From positions 76,165 through 140,164 of the IMG/VR virus record IMGVR_UViG_3300010165_000001: a stretch of 64,000 nucleotides of DNA. One strand, 5' to 3'. This DNA comes from a virus. Positions 25,973 to 60,200 of the stretch are shown here, in pieces. Numbering within the stretch: the first letter of the stretch is position 1; each line of letters begins with the position of its first letter. The position numbers were made by a program, and so were the translations under genes. The notes beneath the pieces were generated by a model. That model was not told the origin of the DNA, did not search any database, and worked only from the letters and a program-made list of their open reading frames with translations.

Positions 25973-26875
25973 TTATTTACCCTCCACGTAAAAATCAAAT
26001 ATAGGGTCTTTATATCTCATAACTCTTCCGTTAAAAGCTTCCCAAAGTTCTTCTAACTTATAAGTTTTCACTTTTCCAGATTCGTCTATAGGGAAGTGAC
26101 CTATAATAGTTGCTACTTCTCCATCTCCCATATAAATACCTACATTATCGTCATTAATACCAAAGAATATTAAATCTCCTTCATTAATTTTTGAAATGTC
26201 ATCTTTATATTTATGACCCTTTTCTAGTATAGTATTAAAATTCTCTCCTGTCAAGACATTAACACTTCTTAATGGATATTCTAATTCTACATCTACATTA
26301 TAGTATAGCCAATAGATAAAGTTATATGAATCACAAGGAAGTTGTTTATCATCATTCACTAATGGATTCTGAAAGGGATAACCTTTATACATATAATAAA
26401 TATTATCTAAATTAACGTTACCTATCATATATTCATAGTAAGCTTGTTCTGACTTTCTAAGTTCAGGTTGTAGGTCTTCATAATCCATATAGGTAGCATA
26501 TATTTGCTGTATGTCTGAAGATAAGGAACTTATAAAATAACTTGATTTAAGTGTTCTTTCTACTTTTATTTGTTCAGTATGTTCTGATTCAGCCTTCTTA
26601 CCATCATAAGTATGTGTTAAGGTTCTTACCTTAATATTTACTTCATATAATCCTGTTTGTATTTCTTTTATATCATAGTTAGAGTTTGTTATTATCATTT
26701 GTTGAATTACATTAGAGTAAGGTCTTAAATGTGAAGCTGAATCTACTGTATCTGTTTCTGCTATTTGTTCTAATTCTTTTTGTTTATCAAATATTGTATC
26801 TTCATCAAAATCTTTTTCATATTCATATATATTTTTAATATACATCTCTACTATTTTATTAATATCTGTATCCAA
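25973..26875 (-). CDS. NlpC/P60-like tail-associated peptidase (300 aa)
   Basis: C-terminal half has the Cys...His arrangement (PCDSYNFIYWLYY ... GDLIFFG ... VGIYMGDGEVATIIGH). TTG start after TAAGGAGG. Confidence 0.6.
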   Translation of the reverse strand: MDTDINKIVEMYIKNIYEYEKDFDEDTIFDKQKELEQIAETDTVDSASHLRPYSNVIQQMIITNSNYDIKEIQTGLYEVNIKVRTLTHTYDGKKAESEHTEQIKVERTLKSSYFISSLSSDIQQIYATYMDYEDLQPELRKSEQAYYEYMIGNVNLDNIYYMYKGYPFQNPLVNDDKQLPCDSYNFIYWLYYNVDVELEYPLRSVNVLTGENFNTILEKGHKYKDDISKINEGDLIFFGINDDNVGIYMGDGEVATIIGHFPIDESGKVKTYKLEELWEAFNGRVMRYKDPIFDFYVEGK

Positions 26876-35092: not shown

Positions 35093-36098
35093 TTATGAGG
35101 CTTTATCTGATGCTGTAAGATAAGAAACAATTTTGTTACGAATAGAATCGTTATTTCTATCCTTCTATATGTTTCCATATAGTTCAGACTATATCATCAC
35201 CTTAAAATTGAAGGTGTCTCCCATTTCCAATCACTTGATTGTACGTCCGCAGACTAGTCGTTGCACGTTCTCTTGTTTTAAGAGCTTCGCTCATGATTGC
35301 CCTCAACATTACTTGTTAGGGGTTTCCATGAATTAGAGAGATTTGCTATAACCATTTCTGATTATAGGAGCTTTTTACCTACTCAATACTTTCTGTAATC
35401 ATTTCATTGGTATTAATTTCTTCGTCCAATATCTTCATACAAGGTCGTTAATCTTGTACAGTTCTCTAATGAACTTCTCTATGTTTCCATAGATGATGAG
35501 ACTATATCACAATCCTATAAGGATTCTTTTCTTTTCCATTTAACAAGGGTTTATTTGGTAATTACCCAACACCTTGACCACTTGGTTGTACACTTACTCC
35601 CTTTGAATAATCAATTAGGTTTCTGTTAGTCGTTTGGCATTTATGATTCTAGGAATCAATTTAGCACAGGATTGCCATATACTTAATGTACTTAGGTTTC
35701 CCTGTTTAGAAAAGTTTTTCGATAAGGATTACTCCTTAAAGCTACAACTTATTATAGTTATTTGCGCTGCAACCATGATAAGCTATGATTACACTCTTAG
35801 TTAAGTTATCTACAACTAAAATGTCGATAACATCTTTTTTAAGGATTTCTTCACCTAAAGAAGCATATCCTAATTTTGCGAAGTTTTCTTTTTTCATTCG
35901 TAATCTTTCTATCGTCACTGTACCTTCATATCTAAGGTAAACGTGTTCTTGTGGCATGATAGAACCAATTTCATATACGCCCTCAGTACCGTATTCACGT
36001 GTACCTGAAGCTGATTGAGCTCTGCCTACAATTTTACCCTTAATCATTAGATAGACGGTATTACCAGTGTGAATACTTTGTTTAGCTTCACTTGCCAT
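35093..36098 (-). CDS. tail tube protein (Twort orf142 homologue), three exons: 36098-35751, 35426-35381, 35127-35093
   Basis: The exons join in frame to exactly 142 aa (...SANNYN/DEEINTNEMITESIE/FSYLTASDKAS). Both 5' exons end in U and both introns end in G. The gene is immediately downstream of the sheath gene. Confidence 0.8.
35128..35380 (-). ncRNA. group I intron 2 of the tail tube gene (253 nt, no ORF)
   Basis: Segment by segment it resembles the crystallised Twort orf142-I2 ribozyme as I recall it: GGAAACCCCUAAC, GGGCAAUCAUGAGCGAAGCUCUUA, GUGCAACGACUAGUC, GAUAUAGUCUGAAC, CGUAACAAAAUUG with terminal G. Confidence 0.8.
35427..35750 (-). ncRNA. group I intron 1 of the tail tube gene (324 nt, no ORF)
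   Basis: P1 pairing: exon CUAUAAU with intron GUUGUAG. Core strings GGAAACCUAAG, GGCAAUCCUGUGCUAAAUU, AAAUGCCAAACGACUAA and GUGAUAUAGUCU match the Twort orf142 intron family. Confidence 0.75.
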
Positions 36099-36167: not shown

Positions 36168-37937
36168 TTAGGCTTGTAATTGTTGTTCTTTATAAACCAA
36201 TGATACAGTAATTTTTTTCAATGTTCTGATTGGGAATACTGTCATTGAGATACGTGCTTCTTTACCTTCAATAATAACTTGTACGTCTTCTGGTGTGAAA
36301 TCTTGGATTTCATGGTCACGTTTTTTACGTTCAAGATAAGACTGAATAAAGTCTTTGATAATTGAAGGACTTGTTTCTGTTGTTCTAGTACCGATGAAGT
36401 TATCATCAAGTAAGATTTTAAGTTCAGAACTTAAGAAGTCGTTTTCTTCACCAATTGCCATTTCAGATTTAACAGGGTCTCTTGTATCATTGTATGTTGT
36501 AACGTCATCTACAATACGGAAACGAGTGTTTAATCTGTCACGAACGAATTCGATAGATACAACACCGTTTTCGTTTAATTGGTCTAAGTCTGAGGATTCA
36601 TAAACTTGGTCTAATGAATTAATACGGAAGTTCTTGAATGTGATTGACTCACCAATATCTAGTCCACTTACTAAACCACCAATAGCTGCTGCTACCATAT
36701 ATGCAGGTACATGGTTTCTACGTCCATCTCCCATCATAAATGTACCAGAGTTAGCTATAAGCGTAACACGTGGATTTACTAGAGCTGAAGCACGACCAAT
36801 TAATTGTTCTTTTGCTTCATTAAACCCTGCACCAACAATAGCTCTCATTGGTTCTCCTGCATCTGAACGTGAAGTTACAAAATGTGCAACCTCTGCGTGT
36901 ACAGATTGTCTAGAACTTAGTGGTACAATGTAGTATCCACCTTCATGAGCAAATTTATCTAATTTTTCTGACCAAGTGCTTGGAGGTGTTCCATTTGTTC
37001 CGCCTTGTAAGTTAGATAATTCAAATGGTTCAATGTCTTGTACAGATACAGTACTTCCTGCTGATACTTCAGCACTACTTTCACCTGCTTCTACACTTAC
37101 ATCGCTTGGAGAATCTTGTTGTCCTTCTGTACGTTCAATTGATATTGCTTGGTCATATTTTGTTTGATTTAAAATATCACCGAAGATTGCTGTTACATAA
37201 ACCCCATCTTCAACTTTAATATCTACATCTTTAGCTTCATCTAAATACTTAGTTTCTAAGTCTTTATTTCCGAATGGTGATAATGTAGCTTTAAAGCTTG
37301 GTAAGTTGTTTACGTCTTTAATGATGTCATTCGTATATTCATATACACCTTCACCTAGTGCATAGTTTCTTACTTCTGAACCATCTTCACTTAAGATTAG
37401 GTTTGTAGCTTCACCAGTTTCTTTATTATGTTTAACTGTATAAGTACCTTGACCTTCTCCTGTATATTCTAATTTGAAGATATTACCAATATTATCGTAA
37501 GTGTTACGAATACGGTCTTTATCAAAGATAACTTTCAAACGGTAAGAATCTGTGATAGTGTTTTCTTCTAAAGCAACTTGAATGTCATTAGAGTCTACAC
37601 CATAGATTTTAGATTTAAAAGTTAATCCACCTTTAGTTAGTGTTGCAGGTTCTGCATCTTCAATACGCATTGCTAAAATAGTTCCTGCTGTAAATTGTGG
37701 GTTTGTAGTCCATGCTAAGTGAATAGCATCTACTAATTCTCCTGAACGGAAAATTTGTTCAGCTTGTGAATAATTTCGTAATTCATATACTGTGTTAGGT
37801 TCCCCACCTTCAGCTTGTCCAATTAAGCAAAGAATCTTCTCACTTGAACTTGCTGAACCACCAATACCTGACGTATCTACATTTATTTCTGTATGTGGAC
37901 GGGTGATAGGGATTCTTGGAAATACACTTTCAGCCAT
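36168..37937 (-). CDS. tail sheath protein (589 aa)
   Basis: PITRPH..I.VDTSGIGGSA.SSEK..CLIGQAEGGEPNTVYELRNYSQA and the C-terminal ISMTV(F/Y)PIR...SLVYK.Q.LQA closely match the phage K sheath sequence as I remember it. Confidence 0.9.
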   Translation of the reverse strand: MAESVFPRIPITRPHTEINVDTSGIGGSASSSEKILCLIGQAEGGEPNTVYELRNYSQAEQIFRSGELVDAIHLAWTTNPQFTAGTILAMRIEDAEPATLTKGGLTFKSKIYGVDSNDIQVALEENTITDSYRLKVIFDKDRIRNTYDNIGNIFKLEYTGEGQGTYTVKHNKETGEATNLILSEDGSEVRNYALGEGVYEYTNDIIKDVNNLPSFKATLSPFGNKDLETKYLDEAKDVDIKVEDGVYVTAIFGDILNQTKYDQAISIERTEGQQDSPSDVSVEAGESSAEVSAGSTVSVQDIEPFELSNLQGGTNGTPPSTWSEKLDKFAHEGGYYIVPLSSRQSVHAEVAHFVTSRSDAGEPMRAIVGAGFNEAKEQLIGRASALVNPRVTLIANSGTFMMGDGRRNHVPAYMVAAAIGGLVSGLDIGESITFKNFRINSLDQVYESSDLDQLNENGVVSIEFVRDRLNTRFRIVDDVTTYNDTRDPVKSEMAIGEENDFLSSELKILLDDNFIGTRTTETSPSIIKDFIQSYLERKKRDHEIQDFTPEDVQVIIEGKEARISMTVFPIRTLKKITVSLVYKEQQLQA

Positions 37938-37958
37938 ATTATTTATGTCTCCTATCTA

Positions 37959-38186
37959 TTATTTTAATTTTTTACCTAAATAACTTTCTAAGTAAGGTAT
38001 AAAATCACGTTCTGAACGTTGATAATATTTACCTTCCATAAAAGCTTTAAATCCTTTAGCTTCTCCATCAGAGAATTTAAAGACTGTTTGTGCTGAGTTA
38101 ATAAAAGTATCTATATCAGCATATCCTGTGAATTTAGGTTTTGTTTGTTTTGTTGTTGGTTTTTTACTAGCCATTGTTATAGTCAT
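37959..38186 (-). CDS. hypothetical head-tail joining module protein (75 aa)
   Basis: ORF track; co-directional; 20-nt overlap with the upstream ORF. Confidence 0.5.
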   Translation of the reverse strand: MTITMASKKPTTKQTKPKFTGYADIDTFINSAQTVFKFSDGEAKGFKAFMEGKYYQRSERDFIPYLESYLGKKLK

Positions 38187-39009
38187 ACCTTCCTTTAAAT
38201 GTTAATTTGTTGATGTCTTGAGTGATTGTATAGTCCATATCTATAGATGTTTCATATGAAATGATTGTTGGTCTACCCCAAATATAAAAATCAGTATCTG
38301 TAATTATAGGGGATAAATCTCCGAACTCTAATCTTTGTAATTGTAAAGATTGTTGTTCTTGTAAGCTATCTCTCATTGATATTAAAATCATTTTTAAAAT
38401 AGCATCTAAACACCTTGCTGTATCTACGTTATCAGATAATCCAACAATCGTTACTTGTTCACTAACAGTAAAACCTTTTACAAGACCTTTAGTATCACCT
38501 GTTTTTTCAACATATTTAACAATAGCCTGATAATTTTCTAAAGATTCATTTCCATCATATCTAAAAGAAATAACATTATCTTCCCACTTCAAATCATCAA
38601 ACTCAGCAAAGGAAATATGTTCTACAACTAATACATCATGAATAGGTTTAGAAACTTTAAGTTTCAATCTATCCCCATCTCTATACACTGTACTATATTC
38701 AGATTGTGTATTACCACTTGCTTCTAAGTAATCAGCTTGTATATTAGAGAAGGATGTATTTGATTCCCTGCCTTGTCCTTGTTGAATGAGATAATGTGCT
38801 TTAGTACCATTTTTAAATTCAGGTGTTTTGAAACTTATAGTGACTTCATAAGGTGCATTTTCTCCACAAAAACCTTCTTTAAAGTTCTCTCTTGTGGATT
38901 CGTTGTAGTCCTTCAAAACCTCGTCTATAATATAACAATTTTTAAGCACTGTCTGTAATCTAGGCTCTATTTCTTCTAGTAAATATGAGTCAGTTGAAGT
39001 GATAGCCAT
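38167..39009 (-). CDS. hypothetical structural protein (280 aa), head-tail module
   Basis: ORF track; synteny between capsid and sheath genes. Confidence 0.5.
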   Translation of the reverse strand: MAITSTDSYLLEEIEPRLQTVLKNCYIIDEVLKDYNESTRENFKEGFCGENAPYEVTISFKTPEFKNGTKAHYLIQQGQGRESNTSFSNIQADYLEASGNTQSEYSTVYRDGDRLKLKVSKPIHDVLVVEHISFAEFDDLKWEDNVISFRYDGNESLENYQAIVKYVEKTGDTKGLVKGFTVSEQVTIVGLSDNVDTARCLDAILKMILISMRDSLQEQQSLQLQRLEFGDLSPIITDTDFYIWGRPTIISYETSIDMDYTITQDINKLTFKGRYDYNNG

Positions 39010-46803: not shown

Positions 46804-49569
46804 TTATTTAATTGAACCCCAAAGCTTTCCTAAGCCTTGATTTGGAGGAGCTACGCCATTCCATGTACGTATAGGAAGATAATATCTTTTCCCTTTCCAA
46901 GTATAACCTACCCACACTAAAAAATCTTGCAACATAACTTCATCATAATCACAGTAACCTCCTGGTTGGAAGTTATAAGCTACTGGACAACTTCTAAATG
47001 GACCAGTTGTTCTAACTACAATAGGTTGATTACCATTAGTAAATCTAGCTTTCTCACTCATATACCACGTACCATAACTATTACGTTTCCATTTTCCTGC
47101 TACAGTTGATTTAGTATTACTTGCAGAACCTGTTTTATTAGATACAGTAGCTGTTGGTACTTTACCTGCTTGATAAGCTCTGATTTGCTTGATGAAATAA
47201 TCTTTAAGTTTAAGTTGTATTGCTTTTGAAGGTACGCCTTGTGTCACAGGGTCGAAACCAGTGTGTAGTTTCATACTTCTGTGAGGGCAGCTAGTCTGTG
47301 AAAATTCCATATGGAGTCTCACTGTATTACGGTTGGCTTTTAACCCCCACTTATTTAATAAACGTGCAGTTTCTTGAAATGCTGCTTGTTCATTTGCTAG
47401 GAATACTTTATCACTTGCACCAATAGATTGACATATCTCTATACCATAATAATTTTTATTACCATTTTGGTTAGCTGTATGCCATGCTATACGACTTTCT
47501 GGTAGTGCTTGATATACTGTATTACCACTGATATATGAATGAGCTACACCTGCTTCTAATCGAGATAAAGGTGCATTTACTAATCCATTATGATACGCTT
47601 CTGCTGTTGCACCTACACTACCCGCATCATTGTGTAGAACAATGCCTTTAGGTGTATATCCACGATTAGGTAAACGATAACCTTTTACTTCATCACGAAT
47701 ATAAGTTAGTTTTTTAGCTTTTTTCTTAGCTGTTGATTTTTTAGTTGTTGTTTTTTTAGTTGTTGTTTTTTTAGTTGTTGTTTTTTTACTTGGAGTTTTC
47801 GTTTTTGCCTCTTCTTTGTAATATGGTCTAATGAACCATTGAGGAAAATCGTATGTGTGTGTTACTCTTGTTGCTGCTTCCCAACCTGTTCCTCCTTTAG
47901 CTGAACCGCTTGTCCAACCTCCGCCTTGCCAATTCTGGTCAAGACTTACAAACTTCATTAAGTTTCCGTCAGCATTTCCATTTAAAACTATAGATACGTG
48001 ACCATACCCGCCACCGTAGGATGAGTTAAAAATTGCCAAGTCACCTGGTTTAGCTTTAAATGAAGATGTATTATTATATACCTTAGCTATACCTTTAAAA
48101 TTATTTGAGTTAGGTATGTCTTTTGCTCCTACACCTTTAAGACTTAAACCAAATAATTTATTCCAATATTCGTTAGCTAGGTCAAAACACTGGTACCCGT
48201 ACCCGATATGTTTACTAAGAACCCTTTCCATTTATATATTTCTATATAAACTTGTATAAATTCATAGTGATTATTAATTAATCCTTATAGGTTTCCTATA
48301 AGACCAGACTATATCATTATATAGGTTAAATAAATTTAAAAGTATACTTTTTTCCCTCTATGTTTTTACAGAATTCCCTTTTTCCTTCTGCTACTTCTTT
48401 AATATGACTTAGTGTAGCTATATTTAAAGACCTTTTTACCTCAGCCATAGATTTATATTCTTTATTTGTCTCAAAACAATAAAATTTAAGTGTTCCTCTA
48501 CCATCTTTATAATACTTATCATATATATTATACCTTTTTGCTAAAGTTATTACATAACCTAGGTCTACATTATATTTTTTAGATATTTGAAAAGCATTTA
48601 TACCTTTTTTGTAATCTTCTAGTATTTTCAATATATTCATATCTTTACCTTCTATTATAAGTTCTAGTATACTTTCTTTTCTTTTTCATCTATCGAAGGT
48701 AAAATACTCTCTTTTATTGAATCCTCTATATATTTAAAATAACTTTTAGAACAATCGAGTTCAACTAATTTTATATTATTTTCTTCACAATACTGTCTTT
48801 TTTCTTCATCAGATTGTTTAGTATTTTTATAAGAATCTACCCAATTAGAACTAATATTATTTGTATAATGTTGTTCACCATGTGTTTCGATTGCTATGTT
48901 TAGTTTTGGTAAATAAAAATCTATAAATCTATTTTTATTGTGAAGTTTATATTGATGTTCAAATTCTATATCTTTAGTCTTTAAATAAGAATATATAAAT
49001 CTTTCAGGGTAGCTCATGTAGTCTTTACAGTAAGGACAAGAAAAACCATTATTATATAAGTTATGTGCCCGAACCTTCTTTTCATATTTACAAATAGGAC
49101 ATACACAATCTATATACCTATCACTACCTCTACTGTAGTATTTTGCATCATTTTTATTTTTAAAATATTTTAATAAATGTGTTTCATTATAGAGGGAATT
49201 TTCTTTTTTTTACTCTTATGTTTTCACCTTTAAATTTCATTTTACATTTCTCCTATATACTCATCACTGTCCGTCAATTGACGATACTTAGTCGTTGAAC
49301 CTTATTCTTCTTTCACTATATCATGAGAATAAATTAATGTCAATAGTTAATCCAAAGAATCTTGGCTGCTGATTGCCTAATCCTTAGTATTTTTGAACTA
49401 TCACGCTTACCGTTACCAGTTACGTTGTAGTTACTAAGGCTCTAAAGGGTTCCCAGCAATTCAATGAGTTTTACATGGACTCGTAAGTTAATCCATCAAA
49501 ATCTATTTTCTTACCTTCTAAACTTTTGACAAATGCTACTGCTTCTTTTTCTGTGAGTTTTGCAACCAT
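46804..49569 (-). CDS. endolysin (CHAP, amidase_2, SH3b), two exons: 49569-49491 and 48203-46804
   Basis: Exon 1 ([26 protein letters not shown]) starts 1 nt after the holin stop. Splicing gives [23 protein letters not shown], parallel to the phi11-type lysin N-terminus as I recall it. Amidase (HNDAGS...) and SH3_5-like C-terminus follow; predicted length 492 aa. Confidence 0.8.
48326..49240 (-). pseudogene. zinc-finger plus Vsr/PD-(D/E)XK-like homing endonuclease gene broken into three reading frames
   Basis: ATG at 49240 after GGAGA. The frame is lost in an A8 run (49204-49211) and resumes through CPICK...CPYCK into ORF 48664-49017 (DFYLP...IETHGEQH). A stop follows, then ORF 48326-48640 (HTH plus C-terminal DNA-binding module) in a third frame. 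Confidence 0.65.
49315..49343 (-). promoter_or_regulatory. SigA-type promoter inside the lysin intron, upstream of the endonuclease gene
   Basis: On the minus strand: TTGACA (49343-49338), 17 nt, TATAGT (49320-49315), in the shared context ctATTGACATTa. Confidence 0.65.
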
Positions 49570-49570
49570 C

Positions 49571-50128
49571 TTATTTATCATCCCTTTCTAAATTGTCAGG
49601 GTCAATTGTAGTATCTAATGGTGTATCATCATGAAGTTTACTTCCACCTAAAGGTGTACTATCGTCATCTTCATACTCAGAAACATCATATTCTACCTCG
49701 TCTGAATCATCTGTAAAAGGTTCAGAAGTATCGAATTCTTCTGGTTCTTTTTCTTTACGCTCTGGAGCTACATCTGCAAGTGAACTATCATTTTGCCATT
49801 GAACAAATTCGTTAGGGTCTTTATCATTTCTAGGTTTTGTGTAATCAGTTCTTACAATCTCACTATCTTTTGCACCCTTACTGTTAGGGTCTACTGAAAC
49901 ACCTAACAATCCAAGGATTAAGAAAATAAACTCAATAATTTTACTTGAGTTAGCTGTGATATCGTCTACTTGAGCTGATAAGTCTACACCTATTAATCCA
50001 CCGAATGATACAGCAGCACTACCTAAAATACCTACAACACCTGTCCAAAAATAAGGACTACGTACACGTGTAGATAAGTTTTGACCTAAAAATACTTTAG
50101 GCTTTTTCTGTTTAGTATCTTTTGACAC
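49571..50128 (-). CDS. large holin (185 aa), HolTW-like
   Basis: Two hydrophobic segments (WTGVVGILGSAAVSFGGLIGV; IIEFIFLILGLLGVSV) and an acidic C-terminal tail. Immediately precedes the lysin. GTG start after AGGAGTGA. Same length as the published Twort holin. Confidence 0.75.
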   Translation of the reverse strand: MSKDTKQKKPKVFLGQNLSTRVRSPYFWTGVVGILGSAAVSFGGLIGVDLSAQVDDITANSSKIIEFIFLILGLLGVSVDPNSKGAKDSEIVRTDYTKPRNDKDPNEFVQWQNDSSLADVAPERKEKEPEEFDTSEPFTDDSDEVEYDVSEYEDDDSTPLGGSKLHDDTPLDTTIDPDNLERDDK

Positions 50129-50389: not shown

Positions 50390-50618
50390 TTAAAATAACT
50401 TCCTCATTCACTTTTATTTCTTTTAATTTACAATCAATATTAATTACATATTTATATTGACTAATATATTTCTGTGCTAATTCTTTAGTGCTAAAGTAAT
50501 ATTCTTCTTTTGATATAGAAACATTTCCTTCTTCTTTCGAGTTATCTACTTGAATATCAGAAACTTTTTTATACTTAGTTACTTTAAATATACTAAACTT
50601 AGGTAATTTTTTATCCAT
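50382..50618 (-). CDS. hypothetical protein (78 aa)
   Basis: ORF track; AGAGGGGA Shine-Dalgarno-like string upstream of the ATG. Confidence 0.5.
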   Translation of the reverse strand: MDKKLPKFSIFKVTKYKKVSDIQVDNSKEEGNVSISKEEYYFSTKELAQKYISQYKYVINIDCKLKEIKVNEEVILNG

Positions 50619-50639
50619 ATTAAATCCCCTCTCATCAGA

Positions 50640-51860
50640 TAAGTTATATGTAATTTCCTATACATTCGTATAGTTTTCTCCTTTTAATATATGTAAAAGA
50701 GAATTGATAAAGCTTGAAACAGGGGCAATTCAAGACTCGGTATCTCAAGCCATCACTTTATATTCTATGACACTTCTTCTGAATATAAAGCTGTCCGATA
50801 GCTTGTATGTAAGAGAGTTATTGTTAGCCAAGGGGAACTCTCAAAACCCTCAATCACTTTTCACGAACGGAAAGACTTAATGAAAAGTCTAAATTTCAAA
50901 TATACCCTTACCTTTAGTTATTGTTTTATACTGGAAAACAGGGTAAGGACTAAAAAACAGTCATATGTTAAAATGTTTATGTATGGTATGGAGCCCACTA
51001 TTCATCCATACTAATTATTTAAAGTGGGTTTATAGGTATATTACTTCGATTTGTCTGTAGAATGAATCTATACAAAAAACAAAGGGAAAGGAGGATTTAT
51101 ATGATTTAAATTTTGATAACTACAATATCTTTTCATATACCTAGGACTTAATATAACAATAAAAAATGTAAGGAATAAAACGAAGGAATTATTGTTATTA
51201 GATTACTAATGTAATCAAAGCACCTGTTATAACTCATCTCACCGAGAACCTGATTATAAGACCTATTATTAAGTGAATCACTACGCTTGACTCTATTAAG
51301 GAGCTACCTTAAGTCCATCTAACGCAATCCAAAAGGATAATGTGATACTAACATAATAGTTAGTAACGTTCACATGGTTGAAGAAATAATTTATTTGGTT
51401 TCACTTTTATATTTACCAAATATAGTTTTTGAAATGTAGATTTATGCTACTTGTACTGATAACCTCTATTATCAAACACATTTCTGTGCTCCAACTACAA
51501 TAAGTCGTTATAGCGTATCTTCATAGGATTCCGCTAAGACCCTAAGAAGAAGTTAAACTCTAGCTGTTATCATACTCTACAGTCCTTATAATCAAGTACC
51601 AAGTATACCAATCGTATTAAACAATACTCATGACGACCTACCCTACCGATTGACTAATCCGATAGGTTTTAGTTCGTTTGATTATCTTGTACCTTATGGG
51701 TACCAATCCATTATTCAGTCATTATAACAAGTGCTTTCAATACACTAATATTTATGTATGAACAGAGAGAACTTAATCCCTCTGAACATATAGGGTGGGT
51801 ATGTGGTTTAAGTAGTGTATCTCAACTACTTAAGTACATTATAACACATAAGTCCATTTC
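50640..51860. ncRNA. candidate large structured RNA region (1.2 kb, ORF-free); strand and identity unknown
   Basis: No ORF of 60 aa or more in any frame. Visibly less AT-rich than true spacers. Many perfect local stems (for example 50756-50765/50781-50790, 10 bp; 50906-50912/50942-50948) and an interleaved pseudoknot-like pair (50981-50986/51006-51011 with 50994-50999/51023-51028). Confidence 0.35.
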
Positions 51861-51867
51861 TACAAAA

Positions 51868-52170
51868 TCAAATTGACTTCTTCTTTAAACATTGTTGATA
51901 AATCTTATTTAAGTGTCCAGGAAGAGCGTACATTGTAATTAACCTATCTGTATTAAAGTCAAATATATAAATGTTAGATTTATATACTCTGAAGTAACCA
52001 CTCTTATGAATAAACCATAATCTGTCTAAGTATTTCTTAAGTTTTCCTTTACAGTCTCCATGACTTAACCCTTCATCTAACACTTTATCTATTTCATCTT
52101 CTAAATTACTTTTTTTAACACCTTGTCTTTTACGTATTCTTTTCTGTCCATGTTTTGTATAGTTACTCAT
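51868..52170 (-). CDS. hypothetical basic protein (100 aa)
   Basis: ORF track; N-terminal TKHGQKRIRKRQGV and later LITMYALP are faintly reminiscent of DUF4258-type small toxin-like proteins (weak). Confidence 0.5.
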   Translation of the reverse strand: MSNYTKHGQKRIRKRQGVKKSNLEDEIDKVLDEGLSHGDCKGKLKKYLDRLWFIHKSGYFRVYKSNIYIFDFNTDRLITMYALPGHLNKIYQQCLKKKSI

Positions 52171-52184
52171 AATACACCATCTCC

Positions 52185-52394
52185 TTAGTTAAATTGTGCT
52201 TGCCATTGTTCCCAAAAATCATATGACTTATCTTTATTTGTTTCTACAAATCCTGTTGTTGATTGGCATGTAGGACAATACATATGTTTAATGTGTCCTT
52301 CACTTCTTTTCTTAGCTCTTTTTCTAGGAATACTTAAATCAGTTCCGCATTCTTGACATTCTAATTTACTATAAACCATTACTTGTTTTTTCAT
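52185..52394 (-). CDS. zinc-ribbon protein (69 aa)
   Basis: CQEC...CPTC four-cysteine arrangement; first gene downstream of two consensus promoters. Confidence 0.55.
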   Translation of the reverse strand: MKKQVMVYSKLECQECGTDLSIPRKRAKKRSEGHIKHMYCPTCQSTTGFVETNKDKSYDFWEQWQAQFN

Positions 52395-52433
52395 ATTATC
52401 ATTTCCTTTTCTTTAATTTATTTTATATATCTA

Positions 52434-52462
52434 ATTATAATATATTGATTAATGTTTGTCAA
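52434..52462 (-). promoter_or_regulatory. consensus SigA-type promoter P1 for the leftward operon
   Basis: On the minus strand: TTGACA (52462-52457), 17 nt, TATAAT (52439-52434), about 40 nt upstream of the ATG at 52394. Confidence 0.75.
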
Positions 52463-52504
52463 TAACTTTTTTTAATTAATACCTTGAATAATTAGTATAG
52501 TTTA

Positions 52505-52533
52505 ACTATATCTTATAAATCATAATATGTCAA
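52505..52533 (-). promoter_or_regulatory. second SigA-type promoter P2, in tandem with P1
   Basis: On the minus strand: TTGACA (52533-52528), 17 nt, TATAGT (52510-52505). Confidence 0.65.
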
Positions 52534-52693
52534 CACTTATTTAAAAAATATAATAAGTTATTTTATCTAGTATATCTTAATATTTATGTATGTATATGTA
52601 TATAATTAAGTTGTAAAGATTCGCTCTAATTCTTCACTACAATTACTTACTTAAATTAATATATGTTTATTAAGTTTATTTTTATATTGTATA

Positions 52694-52852
52694 TTTATTT
52701 AGTTTTCTGTATATATTATTTAGTTACTTTCTATGTACTCTCTAATTTATTATATATCTTATTCTCTTTTTTAAGTCTATATATTTATTATTTAATTTAT
52801 TTAGTTATTAGATAAGTCTACAGTAAATAATAAGTTATTAATTATTTAGGTT
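52694..52852. repeat. four copies of a TTATTTAG(T/G)T motif in an extremely AT-rich spacer (iteron-like)
   Basis: Copies at 52694-52704, 52715-52725, 52796-52806 and 52841-52852; the first two are 21 nt apart. Confidence 0.45.
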
Positions 52853-52859
52853 ATTTGTT

Positions 52860-53340
52860 TTGTGTTTTATTGGTTTAGGTTTGCGTAGCATTACGGGTAG
52901 ACTTATCCCCTAGGTACAACAGAATTGTAACTAGAAAGATATAATCATAGTGTATAAAATATGTATAGATTACGGTCTAGTGCTAACCTTGTTTTACGTT
53001 AATTCTTGTCCTAACAACCTATACTGCTTCGTTTAGCCTTTAGTTATAATGTTTAAAGAGGGGATAGCTACCGCCCCTCGTGAAGTCTGTATATGGGAAC
53101 AAGGCTCCCCTGTGCAAAGCACAACAAGAAACCTCCCTGACCTTTTTAGTACATTGGTAGTCATCACCAAATCTGGAAATATATGCACCATTGTACTATT
53201 TATTTACATATATACCCATCGAATTTTCATGGTGATGCTCGAAGCTCCGATTTAACTTCATCATTGTCGCTATCCCTACACATCTCACCGTTATGTGTAC
53301 TCATCAGCTCTTTATTTAATTGTTATGTATTTCTAACTAA
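52860..53340. ncRNA. second ORF-free, hairpin-rich block; candidate structured RNA or degenerate intron-like relic
   Basis: GC-rich stems GAGGGG/CCCCTC (53058-53063/53074-53079) and a long-range CATCACCA/TGGTGATG pair (53162-53169/53230-53237). The two track ORFs here lack an RBS. A leftward promoter sits at 53345-53373. Confidence 0.3.
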
Positions 53341-57244: not shown

Positions 57245-60200
57245 ATGAAAATGGATGGAAAACAATTAAAAGACTTACTCATATCCACATATGGAACTAC
57301 AAATGTTACCCAAGAACAATTAGATTATGTATTAACAATGTCTAGTACTACTGCTTATATGTTGAAACACAATTTAATACGTGGTCATAATATTACTTTT
57401 TCTATACCAAATAGAGATAAAAGTAAAGCTCAAGCTCATAGACCATAAATTTGCTGTGGTCTTTAAACTCTTCTTAAAATTGGAAACTCCTAACGTAAAG
57501 ACGAGGACAATCAATTGCTAAATTGACTTAATAAGTCATAAATGCCTAGAGACTAAAATTACTGGTAAGCTCATAAATGGTTGAGTGTAGAACAGTATAA
57601 GAAAGCTCTTTTTAAGAGAAGTAACAGAAGAGGGTTACTTACCTAAGAAAGTAACTATGAGATAGTCCAAACCCTTTAAATACTAGGAAACTAGGGGTAT
57701 AAAACGGGCAGATTGCCATAATAAATGATAAACACCCTAACATAGCAGTACTTAAATCGAGACAACTTGGATAAAAATTTGTTCAAGTAAAACCTTGTTA
57801 AACAGGGAAACTCCTAACAAGTAAAGTTGAGGACAATCCTGTGCTAAATTCAGTTACTAACTGATAAATGCCGAACGACTAAAATTACTGGTAAGCTCAT
57901 AAATGGTTGAGTGTAGAACAGTATAAAAGATTAATTTCGTAAAGCAAGGGGTTGTATAAACCGTAATTAAAATTATCTTTATACAATCAAGATATAGTCT
58001 AGTCCGTATATAAATATCACGAAAGTGACGGTATAAACGTAAGTGAAGTTGGATACAATAAGATGTTGCATTTTGCAGATACGCATAGTAAAGATTCGGT
58101 CAAGTGTATGTTCACCTTCAAGTAATTAGGGGAGGCTTTATACAGTAATGTATATCGAATAACTCTACTAAAATTGGAAACTCCTAACATGTAATGATGA
58201 GGACAATCAATTGCTAAATTCAGTTTAAACTGATAAATGCCTAACGACTAATCTTCTAGGTAAATATTCAAAAGGGAATATTGAGAACTAGATAAAAGGA
58301 TATTTAATCCGTAACGTAGAGAGTCCTTAACCAAAAATAAGGATTATGATATAGTCTACTCCGACTTTTAATTAAGTGTTAAAATACTAGGAAACTAGCG
58401 GTATACCCTAGACCCGACCAGTGACCAAATGCAGAAATTCGTACAAAGTAGGATAAATCCTACATTGCAACAACCTTATTTTGCAAGCATCATTAACCAA
58501 GATAATGACTCATTAAAATATAAACAAATAAGAAATTCAAGTATGTTCTTTAGAACAAGTTCTACACCTAAAGCTTTAGAGGGTGTTGATATTGATTACC
58601 TTTCCCTAATGTCTGGGGCTTTATACAGTAATGTATATCGAACAACCTTACTAAAATTGGAAACTCTAAACAGGTAAAGCTGTAGACAATCAATTGCTAA
58701 ATTGACTTAATAAGTCATAAATGCCTAACGACTAAGTTTACTAATAGTTATCTAAATGGAGATAATGAGAATAGTATAAGAAAACCTTTAATAGGAAGTA
58801 ACGTAAGGAATCCTTAACCAAAACTAAGGATTATAAGATAGTCTAATCCCTTTAAATACTAGGAAACTAGGGGTAAAAAACTTTAGAGACGAGTATGATA
58901 GAGTACCTTCATCATCAGAATCATCAGCAATGGAATCAATGTCAAGTTCACCTTTCAAGGTTATAAGACGGTGGTCAACACCAACCACACCAAATATGGG
59001 AATTCATAAACTCTATATGCAATCTGACCAATGGTATTATGGTCATAGATGTACACATTGTGATTACTTAAATGAAATGAGTTATGAAGACTATGACCCA
59101 GATAACTTAGAGAAGAGTGGAAATATCCTATTAGTCAATCCTGAAGGTGTTGACGAAATGGCTAAAACAGTGCAAGAAGGAAGTTACCAATTTGTTTGTC
59201 AAAAATGTGGTAAACTTCTAGATAGATGGTATAACGGAGAATGGCATAGTAAGTTTAGTGAAAGAACTAAAGGTGGAAAAGGAACAAGAGGTTATTTTAT
59301 TTCGCAGCTTAATGCTGTGTGGATAAGTGCTTCAGAACTCAAAGAAAAAGAAATGAACACTGAATCAACGCAATTATTTTATAACTATACATTGGGTTAG
59401 AGGAATAGCCCCTTTATACAGTAATGTATATCGAATAACTCTACTAAAATTGGGAACCCCTAACAGATAATGCTGAGGGCAATCAATTGCTAAATATTTA
59501 TTTTAACTATTGACATTACCTAAATAATGATATATAATTAAGATAGATTAAATGCCTAACGACTAAGTTTATAGGTAACTTACTAAATGAAGTAAGGTAG
59601 AACTATAAGAGAAGGTTAACGACCTGTAAAGTAGAGATTCCTTAGTCAAAATTAAGGAATATGATATAGTCTAGTCCGTATATAAATATCACGAAAGTGA
59701 CGGTAGTAACGTTTCCATACGAAGACCAGAAAATGAAAGTATTACAAGAAGATATTTACAACAATCAATCTCCTATTGCTAAGAAACAAATGTTTGATAG
59801 GGGAGATTATAAATTTATCGCAGCATCAGTGGATTGGGGTAATACTCACTGGTGTACTGTACATGGAATGACTGAAGATGGTAAGATAGACCTCATTAGA
59901 TTATTTAATGTTAAACGAAATAAAAACCCTAACATGGTTGAATCGGATATAGAAAAAATACGTGTAGAATTTTCTAAATATAACCCAGATATTATTGTAG
60001 CAGATACAGGAGACTCAGGAAACAACTTACTAAGACTCCAACAATACTTCGGTGAAGATATTGTGTTTGGTTGTACTTACAAATCATCTCCTAAATCTAC
60101 TGGACAAATTAAACCTGTGTTTAACGAGAATTCAAATATTGTTACTGTAGATAAATTGATGCAGAACAAAATTTATATCCAAGATTTAAAAACAGGTAGA

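Follow-up and report, generated by a model that had tools for sequence, protein, structure and literature searches.

The window analyzed here is a 64,000-nucleotide (nt) stretch of viral DNA (IMG/VR record IMGVR_UViG_3300010165_000001, positions 76,165 to 140,164) from a Staphylococcus Twortvirinae phage, the closest relative of which is vB_SurM-PSU4 (Baoshanvirus). Open reading frames (ORFs) of at least 60 amino acids (aa) cover 87% of the window, and in a six-frame scan the longest interval without one was 50619-51867 (1249 nt), followed by intervals of 980 and 654 nt. The genes flanking this block are on the minus strand. Within it lies the subject of this report, a 541-nt element (51207-51747) that is almost certainly a structured RNA gene and very probably a divergent relative of the ROOL RNAs. 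Comparison across phages divided the block into three parts, this core, a 3' trailer (50640-51206) and a leader (51748-51867); the latter two are lineage-specific and lie outside the conserved RNA.

An initial annotation, made from the letters alone, had described 50640-51860 as an ORF-free block and a candidate large structured RNA. No ORF of 60 aa or more was found to overlap these positions (the largest in the ORF list were 58, 44 and 40 aa), and the block was indeed less AT-rich than the spacer nearby, with a GC content of 0.30-0.365 over 50600-51800 vs. 0.145-0.155 over 52400-52800. ARAGORN returned no transfer RNA (tRNA) or transfer-messenger RNA (tmRNA) gene anywhere in the window, and Rfam scans no group I or II intron in the block. 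The proposed large RNA was recovered with strong covariation, but it occupied only 51207-51747, about 44% of the block. The seven helices listed in support of it were all perfect complements, and the stem near 51808-51836, given as 9-10 bp, was present with 9 bp (51833-51825 with 51816-51808). The complementarity of an interleaved pair at 50981-51028, suggested as a pseudoknot, was also present, outside the conserved RNA, and could not be tested by covariation because this DNA is common only to close relatives at 91-98% identity. Neither this pair nor any of the listed hairpins belongs to 51207-51747, and as evidence for the RNA they were set aside; all but one of the helices are in the trailer.

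Fold and conservation of the core RNA

Megablast found the core (51229-51725) in 246 and blastn in 314 phage records of Staphylococcus and Mammaliicoccus. Identities were 67-93%, the boundaries were sharp and shared, and the core was kept in at least seven genus-level clades at identities down to 67%. It was almost never annotated, and the small ORFs placed over it in some records were mutually inconsistent. Homologs were drawn from GenBank phages, IMG/VR and metagenomes and delimited with nhmmer, giving lengths of 523-584 nt. The alignment, A2, held 26 distinct sequences from Baoshanvirus, Kayvirus, Silviavirus, Sepunavirus, Sciuriunavirus, Twort-like and unclassified phages.

A consensus of 130 nested pairs in 19 helices was obtained from A2 with RNAalifold, and 89 of these pairs showed compensatory changes. 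The proportion of alignment cells paired was 97.5%, compared with 37-42% when partners were slid by 1-3 columns; the covariation score was 0.600 (0.07-0.09 in the slid controls) and was reached by none of 500 shuffles. In the window copy, 126 of the 130 consensus pairs were canonical. The sense strand was identified as the minus strand, since G.U cells exceeded A.C cells (426 vs. 29 in A2) and the minimum free energy of the core was lower on the minus strand (-149.9 kcal/mol, z -5.40) than on the plus strand (-113.7 kcal/mol). The relatives did not show intact protein-coding genes at this position: no ORF was conserved in the core, the longest per homolog ranging from 25 to 104 aa with differing frames and strands.

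The possibility that the whole 1.2-kb block is decayed DNA, left by lost tRNA genes and small ORFs and serving only for spacing or as promoter or terminator, was weighed against this covariation and is very improbable. It draws on the trailer, which is a mosaic limited to close relatives, with indels of 80-570 nt between Baoshanvirus-like phages, stands where phage K has tRNA-Trp, tRNA-Phe and tRNA-Asp, and holds a fragment of an element that in other phages is located elsewhere. No tRNA or detectable tRNA remnant was found in the trailer, and for 51207-51747 decay is refuted by conservation in at least seven clades, the compensated pairs and the intact fold.

Table 1. Coordinates of the core RNA, its parts and the features around it, with the evidence for each.
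Feature	Position in window	Strand	Evidence or remark
ROOL-like structured RNA gene, 541 nt, Kayvirus lncRNA2 homolog	51207-51747	-	Covariation, Rfam ROOL, synteny
Closing helix P1, 5' strand	51722-51747	-	24 pairs with 51207-51232, 14 compensated, 98.4% of cells paired
Closing helix P1, 3' strand	51207-51232	-	Partner of 51722-51747
Central domain, helices 11-14, most conserved part	51456-51573	-	Alignment A3, model R1
A-rich variable linker with lineage-specific hairpin (51394-51420)	51385-51435	-	A2 columns 362-426
PK1, UGUAG with CUACA, crossing helix 11	51499-51495 with 51439-51435	-	5 pairs, 3 compensated, 100% paired
PK2, AGCG (helix 13 loop) with CGCU	51535-51532 with 51515-51512	-	4 pairs, 2 compensated, 100% paired
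PK3, UGGU (helix 3 loop) with ACCA	51705-51702 with 51378-51375	-	4 pairs, 1 compensated, 100% paired
Helix 17, self-complementary apical loop GUAGCUC (51301-51307)	51296-51312	-	Loop comparison by genus
Zinc-ribbon protein, basic, 69 aa, phrog_1257, phage K gp191 homolog	52185-52394	-	E 7.5e-25
100-aa ORF, phrog_16724, between zinc-ribbon gene and RNA	51868-52170	-	Absent there in phage K
Leader between 100-aa ORF and RNA, two hairpins	51748-51867	-	Consensus promoter absent
3' trailer, mosaic, hairpin-containing	50640-51206	-	Baoshanvirus-like phages only
69-nt fragment of ~295-nt noncoding element X	50730-50798		94-97% identical to at least 20 phages, elsewhere in the genome
Perfect sigma-70 promoter TTGACA-17-TATAAT	52434-52462	-	12/12 matches; upstream of zinc-ribbon gene

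The ends of the RNA are joined by the 24-bp closing helix, which defines it as 541 nt long. A reading of this helix as the terminal inverted repeats of a mobile element was ruled out by the G.U bias and the internal covariation. The central domain carries GUUGGAG at 51489-51495 and an invariant GAAA tetraloop at 51481-51484. The linker could not be aligned between genera, and a hairpin was formed there in every genus. Three helices crossing the nested structure (PK1-PK3) were found in a covariation scan; every one of their 338 cells was paired, and compensation was seen at 6 of the 13 pairs. PK1 replaced a small GUAG/CUAC hairpin taken from the first alignment and explains its mismatches in two clades. 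PK3 is a loop-loop contact, with ACCA in the loop of the hairpin at 51369-51382 and a G-C to A-U change in 9 sequences. The fold is thus conserved, compact and pseudoknotted, with both ends sealed in a long helix.

Two sites of expansion were observed in A2, namely a 43-nt expansion at the tip of helix 6 in PSU4 (columns 99-141; locus L001) and a hairpin of ~36 nt inserted after hairpin d (columns 477-512) in Kayvirus, Silviavirus and PG-2021_19. These sites tolerate insertion and could be of use for tagging.

Correspondence with Kayvirus lncRNA2

Judged by sequence and gene order, the window RNA is the ortholog of Kayvirus lncRNA2, which outranks all other phage transcripts in abundance during infection. 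The core was 81% identical to phage K 38032-38568 over 539 aligned positions, and the structured domain in phage K spans 38010-38590. Published coordinates of lncRNA2 are 38,024-38,566 in phage K (Kuptsov et al., PMC11598898), 38,000-38,525 in vB_SauM-515A1 (Kornienko et al., PMC7698491) and 37679-38832 for the 'lnc' of Finstrlova et al. (PMC9241854); the published lncRNA2 limits lie 14-40 nt or less from the ends of the closing helix. The strand is the same, as is the order of zinc-ribbon gene, RNA, (tRNAs), small ORFs, holin and endolysin. Unlike Kayvirus, the window has no dedicated consensus promoter, none of the three downstream tRNAs and no 36-nt expansion hairpin, and it has the additional 100-aa ORF upstream of the RNA.

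A stable transcript, the lack of which the initial annotation had named as a reason to abandon the RNA, is on record for the phage K homolog, which was published as discrete and extremely abundant (PMC11598898, PMC7698491, PMC9241854). In phage K, lncRNA1 and lncRNA2 together accounted for 27% of reads, and the tRNAs 3' of lncRNA2 were far scarcer, though no terminator was evident (Kuptsov et al., PMC11598898). In 515A1, the lncRNA2 region, with an early promoter, accounted for 8.4% of counts per million (Kornienko et al., PMC7698491). These three reports present lncRNA2 as an abundant transcript, without secondary structure or family; a likeness to ROOL and GOLLD was noted by Finstrlova et al. 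for position and abundance only (PMC9241854), and our literature search found no paper placing lncRNA2 in an RNA family.

Relationship to the ROOL family

ROOL RNAs (Rfam RF03087; Weinberg et al. 2017) have a mean length of 581 nt, many multistem junctions, three pseudoknots and a variable linker, are located in phages and prophages near tRNAs, and reach an abundance comparable to ribosomal RNA (PMC5737381; PMC12286853). We consider it very probable that the window RNA is a deeply divergent homolog. Rfam scans in gathering mode over the whole window and 13 related loci gave no match on the core RNA, nor did scans at E up to 10 over a 1.7-kb sub-window and five divergent homologs. When the search space was 556 nt, the Rfam ROOL model matched window positions 51224-51690 at 54.3 bits (E 3.6e-10). 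The earlier negative scans were filter artifacts.

A covariance model, R1, was built from the central domain (51573-51456; 117 positions, 34 pairs) with Staphylococcus sequences only (alignment A3), and scored 129 bits on the central domain of the window. Because the zinc-ribbon protein phrog_1257 has homologs in the Herelleviridae of Listeria and Bacillus, their loci were fetched. With filters off, R1 matched Listeria phage LP-083-2 (locus L129:2237-2356) at 61.4 bits (E 8.6e-13) and Listeria phage cka4 at 60.2 bits (E ~1e-12), in both cases inside a tRNA island. On LP-083-2 L129:2066-2617 the Rfam ROOL model scored 87.4 bits (E 3.5e-17) over model positions 1-574, its full length. The A2 profile also matched this locus in nhmmer (E 2.4e-7). 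When the Listeria RNA was added to A2 with MAFFT, 75 of 130 pairs were satisfied, a result that is uninformative because the alignment is not structure-aware. An alignment of the 3' domain (A4), made for a second model, was dropped, as two of its hairpins were placed out of register by MAFFT and the model had become redundant with the direct Rfam match.

The Listeria Pecentumvirus RNA shares with the Staphylococcus RNA the promoter type, the exact AAGGUAGCUCCUU hairpin (as in helix 17) and the long helix that closes the fold, and lies in a tRNA island less than 400 nt from the homologous zinc-ribbon gene. It differs in standing upstream of that gene, whereas the Staphylococcus RNA is downstream, and in being undetected by BLAST with the Staphylococcus RNA; its score, too, falls below the Rfam gathering score. 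It is an evolutionary intermediate that links the window RNA to ROOL. Of ROOL and GOLLD, the two candidates mentioned in the initial annotation, the first was supported, and GOLLD gave no match.

The high-confidence blocks of the Rfam alignment were the family's own conserved motifs, in unchanged order. In the window family this order is UGGAG-stem-GAAA-stem-UGAUAA, GUACAAGUAGC, linker, UUCUUC..GUGAA.GUU, hairpin, GGUAGCUCC loop, terminal hairpin and closing helix; the collinear motifs of the ROOL consensus are UGA.G-stem-GAAA-stem-GUAUAA, GUAcaAGUAGC, UUCU..GUGAAAgUU, GGU.GCUCC loop, terminal hairpin and AU-rich closing helix. Further resemblances to ROOL are the length of the Staphylococcus homologs, the AU-rich closing helix, the multistem junctions, the GAAA loop and the variable internal linker, which in ROOL is described as disordered (PMC12286853), as well as a phage location that in most relatives adjoins tRNA genes and, in phage K, a very high abundance. 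The count of crossing helices, three, equals that of the ROOL pseudoknots. The differences are a sequence diverged enough for default filters to drop the match, a 5' domain that aligns poorly and occurrence in strictly virulent Herelleviridae of staphylococci.

Several points weigh against membership in ROOL. The gathering score of the Rfam model is 99.1 bits, so that the window RNA is 45 bits short of the threshold, and larger Rfam scans missed the match altogether. In the 5' domain the Rfam alignment is out of register with the window RNA, and full-length equivalence of architecture there comes from the Listeria alignment as read by eye, not from a computed alignment. PK1-PK3 were not mapped one-to-one onto the three published ROOL pseudoknots, which the Rfam structure line omits. 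The window has no nearby tRNA gene and its lineage no dedicated promoter, and transcript abundance is known for phage K and 515A1 only. As for a ROOL-like assembly, oligomerization is purely inferred, and the helix 17 loop is palindromic neither in the Twort-like clade nor in the Rfam ROOL consensus (UcGCU).

The alternative that the RNA is a separate class restricted to Herelleviridae, with its likeness to ROOL due to convergence and the sub-threshold Rfam matches to composition, would accommodate scores below gathering in both Staphylococcus and Listeria, the large composition-bias terms (25.5 and 24.0 bits, respectively), the unclean 5' alignment and the empty standard scans; size, an AU-rich closing helix, a GAAA loop and phage context are features on which unrelated RNAs may converge. 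It is nevertheless improbable, as the E-values of 3.6e-10 and 3.5e-17 are already bias-corrected and the matches span the full model. The blocks of high posterior probability are moreover motifs that are not AU-rich (GUUGGAG..GAAA..UGAUAA, AAGUAGC, GUGAA.GUU and GGUAGCUCC) in the same order, and the match of the independent Staphylococcus-only model falls inside the Listeria ROOL match. Homology with ROOL was accordingly retained.

GOLLD (RF01998) is likewise a large ornate phage RNA near tRNAs, abundant in lytic growth and forming an RNA-only cage, but it exceeds 800 nt and has a different fold, and it gave no match at E up to 10, including the 556-nt search. Neither the block nor the 556-nt core matched OLE, HEARO, raiA, tmRNA, RNase P or group I/II introns in Rfam at E up to 10, and these families and GOLLD were equally without a match on the five divergent homologs. 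Phage K lncRNA1 (NC_005880 13,688-14,215; L005:1189-1716) is dissimilar to lncRNA2, had no counterpart in the window by blastn and was matched neither by R1 nor by Rfam in gathering mode; the filter effect seen with ROOL could likewise mask a family match for lncRNA1.

With regard to distribution, BLAST with the Staphylococcus RNA returned matches in Staphylococcus and Mammaliicoccus phages only, the Listeria relatives being visible to covariance models alone. IMG/VR and metagenomes yielded only Twortvirinae-like copies. A search for the exact conserved pattern in 185,579 bacterial and archaeal species (one genome each) gave 18 pattern matches, none a true homolog, and in metagenomes the pattern was matched 78 times; 3 of these matches were true homologs, all Twortvirinae-like.

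A mode of action may be proposed by analogy with ROOL env-120, which was seen by cryo-electron microscopy as an octameric RNA-only cage with the linker inside (Kretsch et al. 2025; PMC12286853). The window RNA would probably act in bulk as a folded particle and not as a base-pairing regulator, self-assembling into an RNA-only homo-oligomer with the variable linker inside. We regard the formation of a ROOL-like oligomer by the window RNA as an evenly balanced prospect. One inter-chain bridge of ROOL pairs identical sequences (PMC12286853), and candidate contacts between chains of the window RNA would include the helix 17 loop, which is self-complementary. By genus this loop holds AGCU, UAGCUA, GCUAGC or UUGCAA, with the Twort-like clade (UCGCU) as the exception; palindromy kept while the sequence changes is a hint of an oligomer contact.

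For lncRNA2, an orphan staphylococcal transcript that in Kayvirus therapy phages makes up at least about a tenth of the phage reads, ROOL membership would supply a family and a testable structural hypothesis. For ROOL, which comes mostly from metagenomes and prophages and has its cage structure solved but no function assigned, it would supply a tractable model in S. aureus, namely the virulent phage K and related phages, for which time-resolved RNA-seq and genome-editing methods have been published. The Rfam ROOL model with default filters would then be missing a clade of more than 300 phage genomes in addition to the Listeria Pecentumvirus relatives.

Expression, neighboring genes and further observations

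A TTGACA-17-TATAAT promoter with its end ~11 nt 5' of the closing helix was seen in Kayvirus, in Sciuriunavirus, in Twort-like phages and in several other clades, and in Romulus a promoter is annotated at the same place. From this position the closing helix was taken to form the extreme 5' end of the primary transcript, and transcription in the promoter-bearing clades is predicted to start 2-5 nt before it. Upstream comparison found no consensus promoter before the RNA in the window, in its Baoshanvirus relatives or in Sepunaviruses. The nearest strong promoter able to drive the RNA in the window is the perfect one upstream of the zinc-ribbon gene (Table 1), and since the RNA has no promoter of its own here, it is probably cut from a longer transcript starting there; the RNA would be co-transcribed from 52462-52434 and then processed out. 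No intrinsic terminator was found after the RNA in a scan of the window.

These arrangements bear on a reading of the RNA as a cis element, either a stalk through which RNase III matures a tRNA operon or a primer or activator RNA for an AT-rich putative replication origin. A 24-bp terminal helix is plausible as an RNase III substrate, and tRNAs lie directly 3' of the RNA in Kayvirus, Silviavirus, CF7, 184DA and PG16. The untranscribed AT-rich putative origin of phage K is just upstream of the zinc-ribbon gene (PMC9241854), and the layout of the window is the same. However, the locus yielded no tRNA in Baoshanvirus or Sepunavirus and both keep the fold in full, transcription points away from the AT-rich region, and the phage K RNA accumulates far above the downstream tRNAs. 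The tertiary-type covariation (GAAA loop and three crossing helices) is needless for a processing stalk, and homology with ROOL stands. A cis role in place of a ROOL-like RNA is thus the least credible of the explanations considered.

The zinc-ribbon protein belongs to phrog_1257, labeled 'ribosome associated inhibitor A; zinc finger', and tblastn located it in 496 records of phages from Staphylococcus, Listeria and Bacillus. Its gene adjoins the RNA in Twortvirinae and is less than 400 nt from it in Listeria Pecentumvirus, and thus accompanies it in two subfamilies of Herelleviridae. An R1 match within 4 kb of the zinc-ribbon gene was present at 8 of 61 viral loci, all of Staphylococcus or Listeria types; the other 53 had no R1 match within 4 kb, and no Bacillus-type or metagenomic large phage had one, a weak negative given that R1 is narrow. 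A functional link between gene and RNA is no more than a possibility. More speculatively, and as a long shot, Twortvirinae and Pecentumvirus may hold a functionally distinct ROOL lineage that partners phrog_1257, the resulting ribonucleoprotein or cage capturing a component of host translation (ribosome, tRNA or RNase). Such capture during lytic takeover, if true, would explain the dominance of the RNA among phage transcripts.

Within the flanks, the leader hairpins are formed by 51833-51825/51816-51808 and 51784-51778/51769-51763, and the trailer folds only moderately more stably than its shuffles (z -2.56). The fragment of element X in the trailer contains the trailer's best stem, the 10-bp 50756-50765/50781-50790. 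Element X is complete in Golestan101 (L013:2062-2356), beside the ROOL-like RNA, and copies 90-97% identical are present at the tRNA-Met/lncRNA1 locus in SAP23 (MZ427930 16678-16970), 184DA, PSU5 and others. Near-identical copies at different positions in several Twortvirinae genera suggest that it moved recently between loci and is a small mobile or recombining element. The complete copy (L013:2055-2360) had no Rfam match and a folding z of only -1.26.

CU-rich motifs resembling anti-Shine-Dalgarno sequences (UCCUCCUUUCCC, UUUCCUCCUUUG and CUCCU) recurred in several genera at distances of up to ~120 nt beyond the 3' side of the closing helix, in many cases within hairpin loops (window 51080-51100, minus strand; loci L003, L004, L007, L009 and L032). 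Read on the plus strand, the motif in the window is AGGAGG, and a two-codon ORF comes after it. In Romulus, a RAGATH-18 match (L006:18-107, 63.8 bits) lies beside a transposase gene, 3' of the tRNA-Ser that follows the ROOL-like RNA.

The interval 52395-53048 (especially 52400-52860), between the zinc-ribbon gene and divergent plus-strand genes, is ORF-free with a GC content of 14.5-15.5%, and matches in position the phage K gp190-gp191 gap, the only untranscribed region of that phage and its proposed replication origin (Finstrlova et al., PMC9241854). In Listeria phages, a 394-nt gap 3' of the zinc-ribbon gene (LP-083-2 L129:3202-3595; cka4 26,236-26,727) precedes a gene annotated 'RNA-binding protein'. 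It appears to be the most transcribed region of the related CKA15 (PMC12282133), with cka4 and CKA15 coordinates assumed to match; on this assumed correspondence, L129:3202-3595 would be a second abundant noncoding RNA, distinct from L129:2066-2617.

Elsewhere in the window, the 980-nt interval lacking ORFs of at least 60 aa is at 57449-58428. The sequences on either side of it match terL, the gene for the terminase large subunit, in relatives, so that the interval probably represents an intron or an insert in that gene; the gathering-mode Rfam scan returned no match for it. About 1.3 kb separates the endolysin ORF (46804-48231) from the holin ORF (49571-50128), genes that abut in PSU4. This interval holds 49018-49570 and the ORFs 48326-48640 and 48664-49017, and may be an intron/homing-endonuclease insert, as in the phage K endolysin gene. 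A match to Rfam 'Staphylococcus sRNA 808' at 46985-47239 (minus strand, 80.2 bits, gathering score 76) falls within the endolysin ORF and, rather than a small RNA, probably reflects coding sequence that this gene has in common with prophage lysins. Two adjacent group I intron matches were found on the minus strand at 35165-35397 and 35477-35763, with 96.4 and 75.2 bits, respectively.

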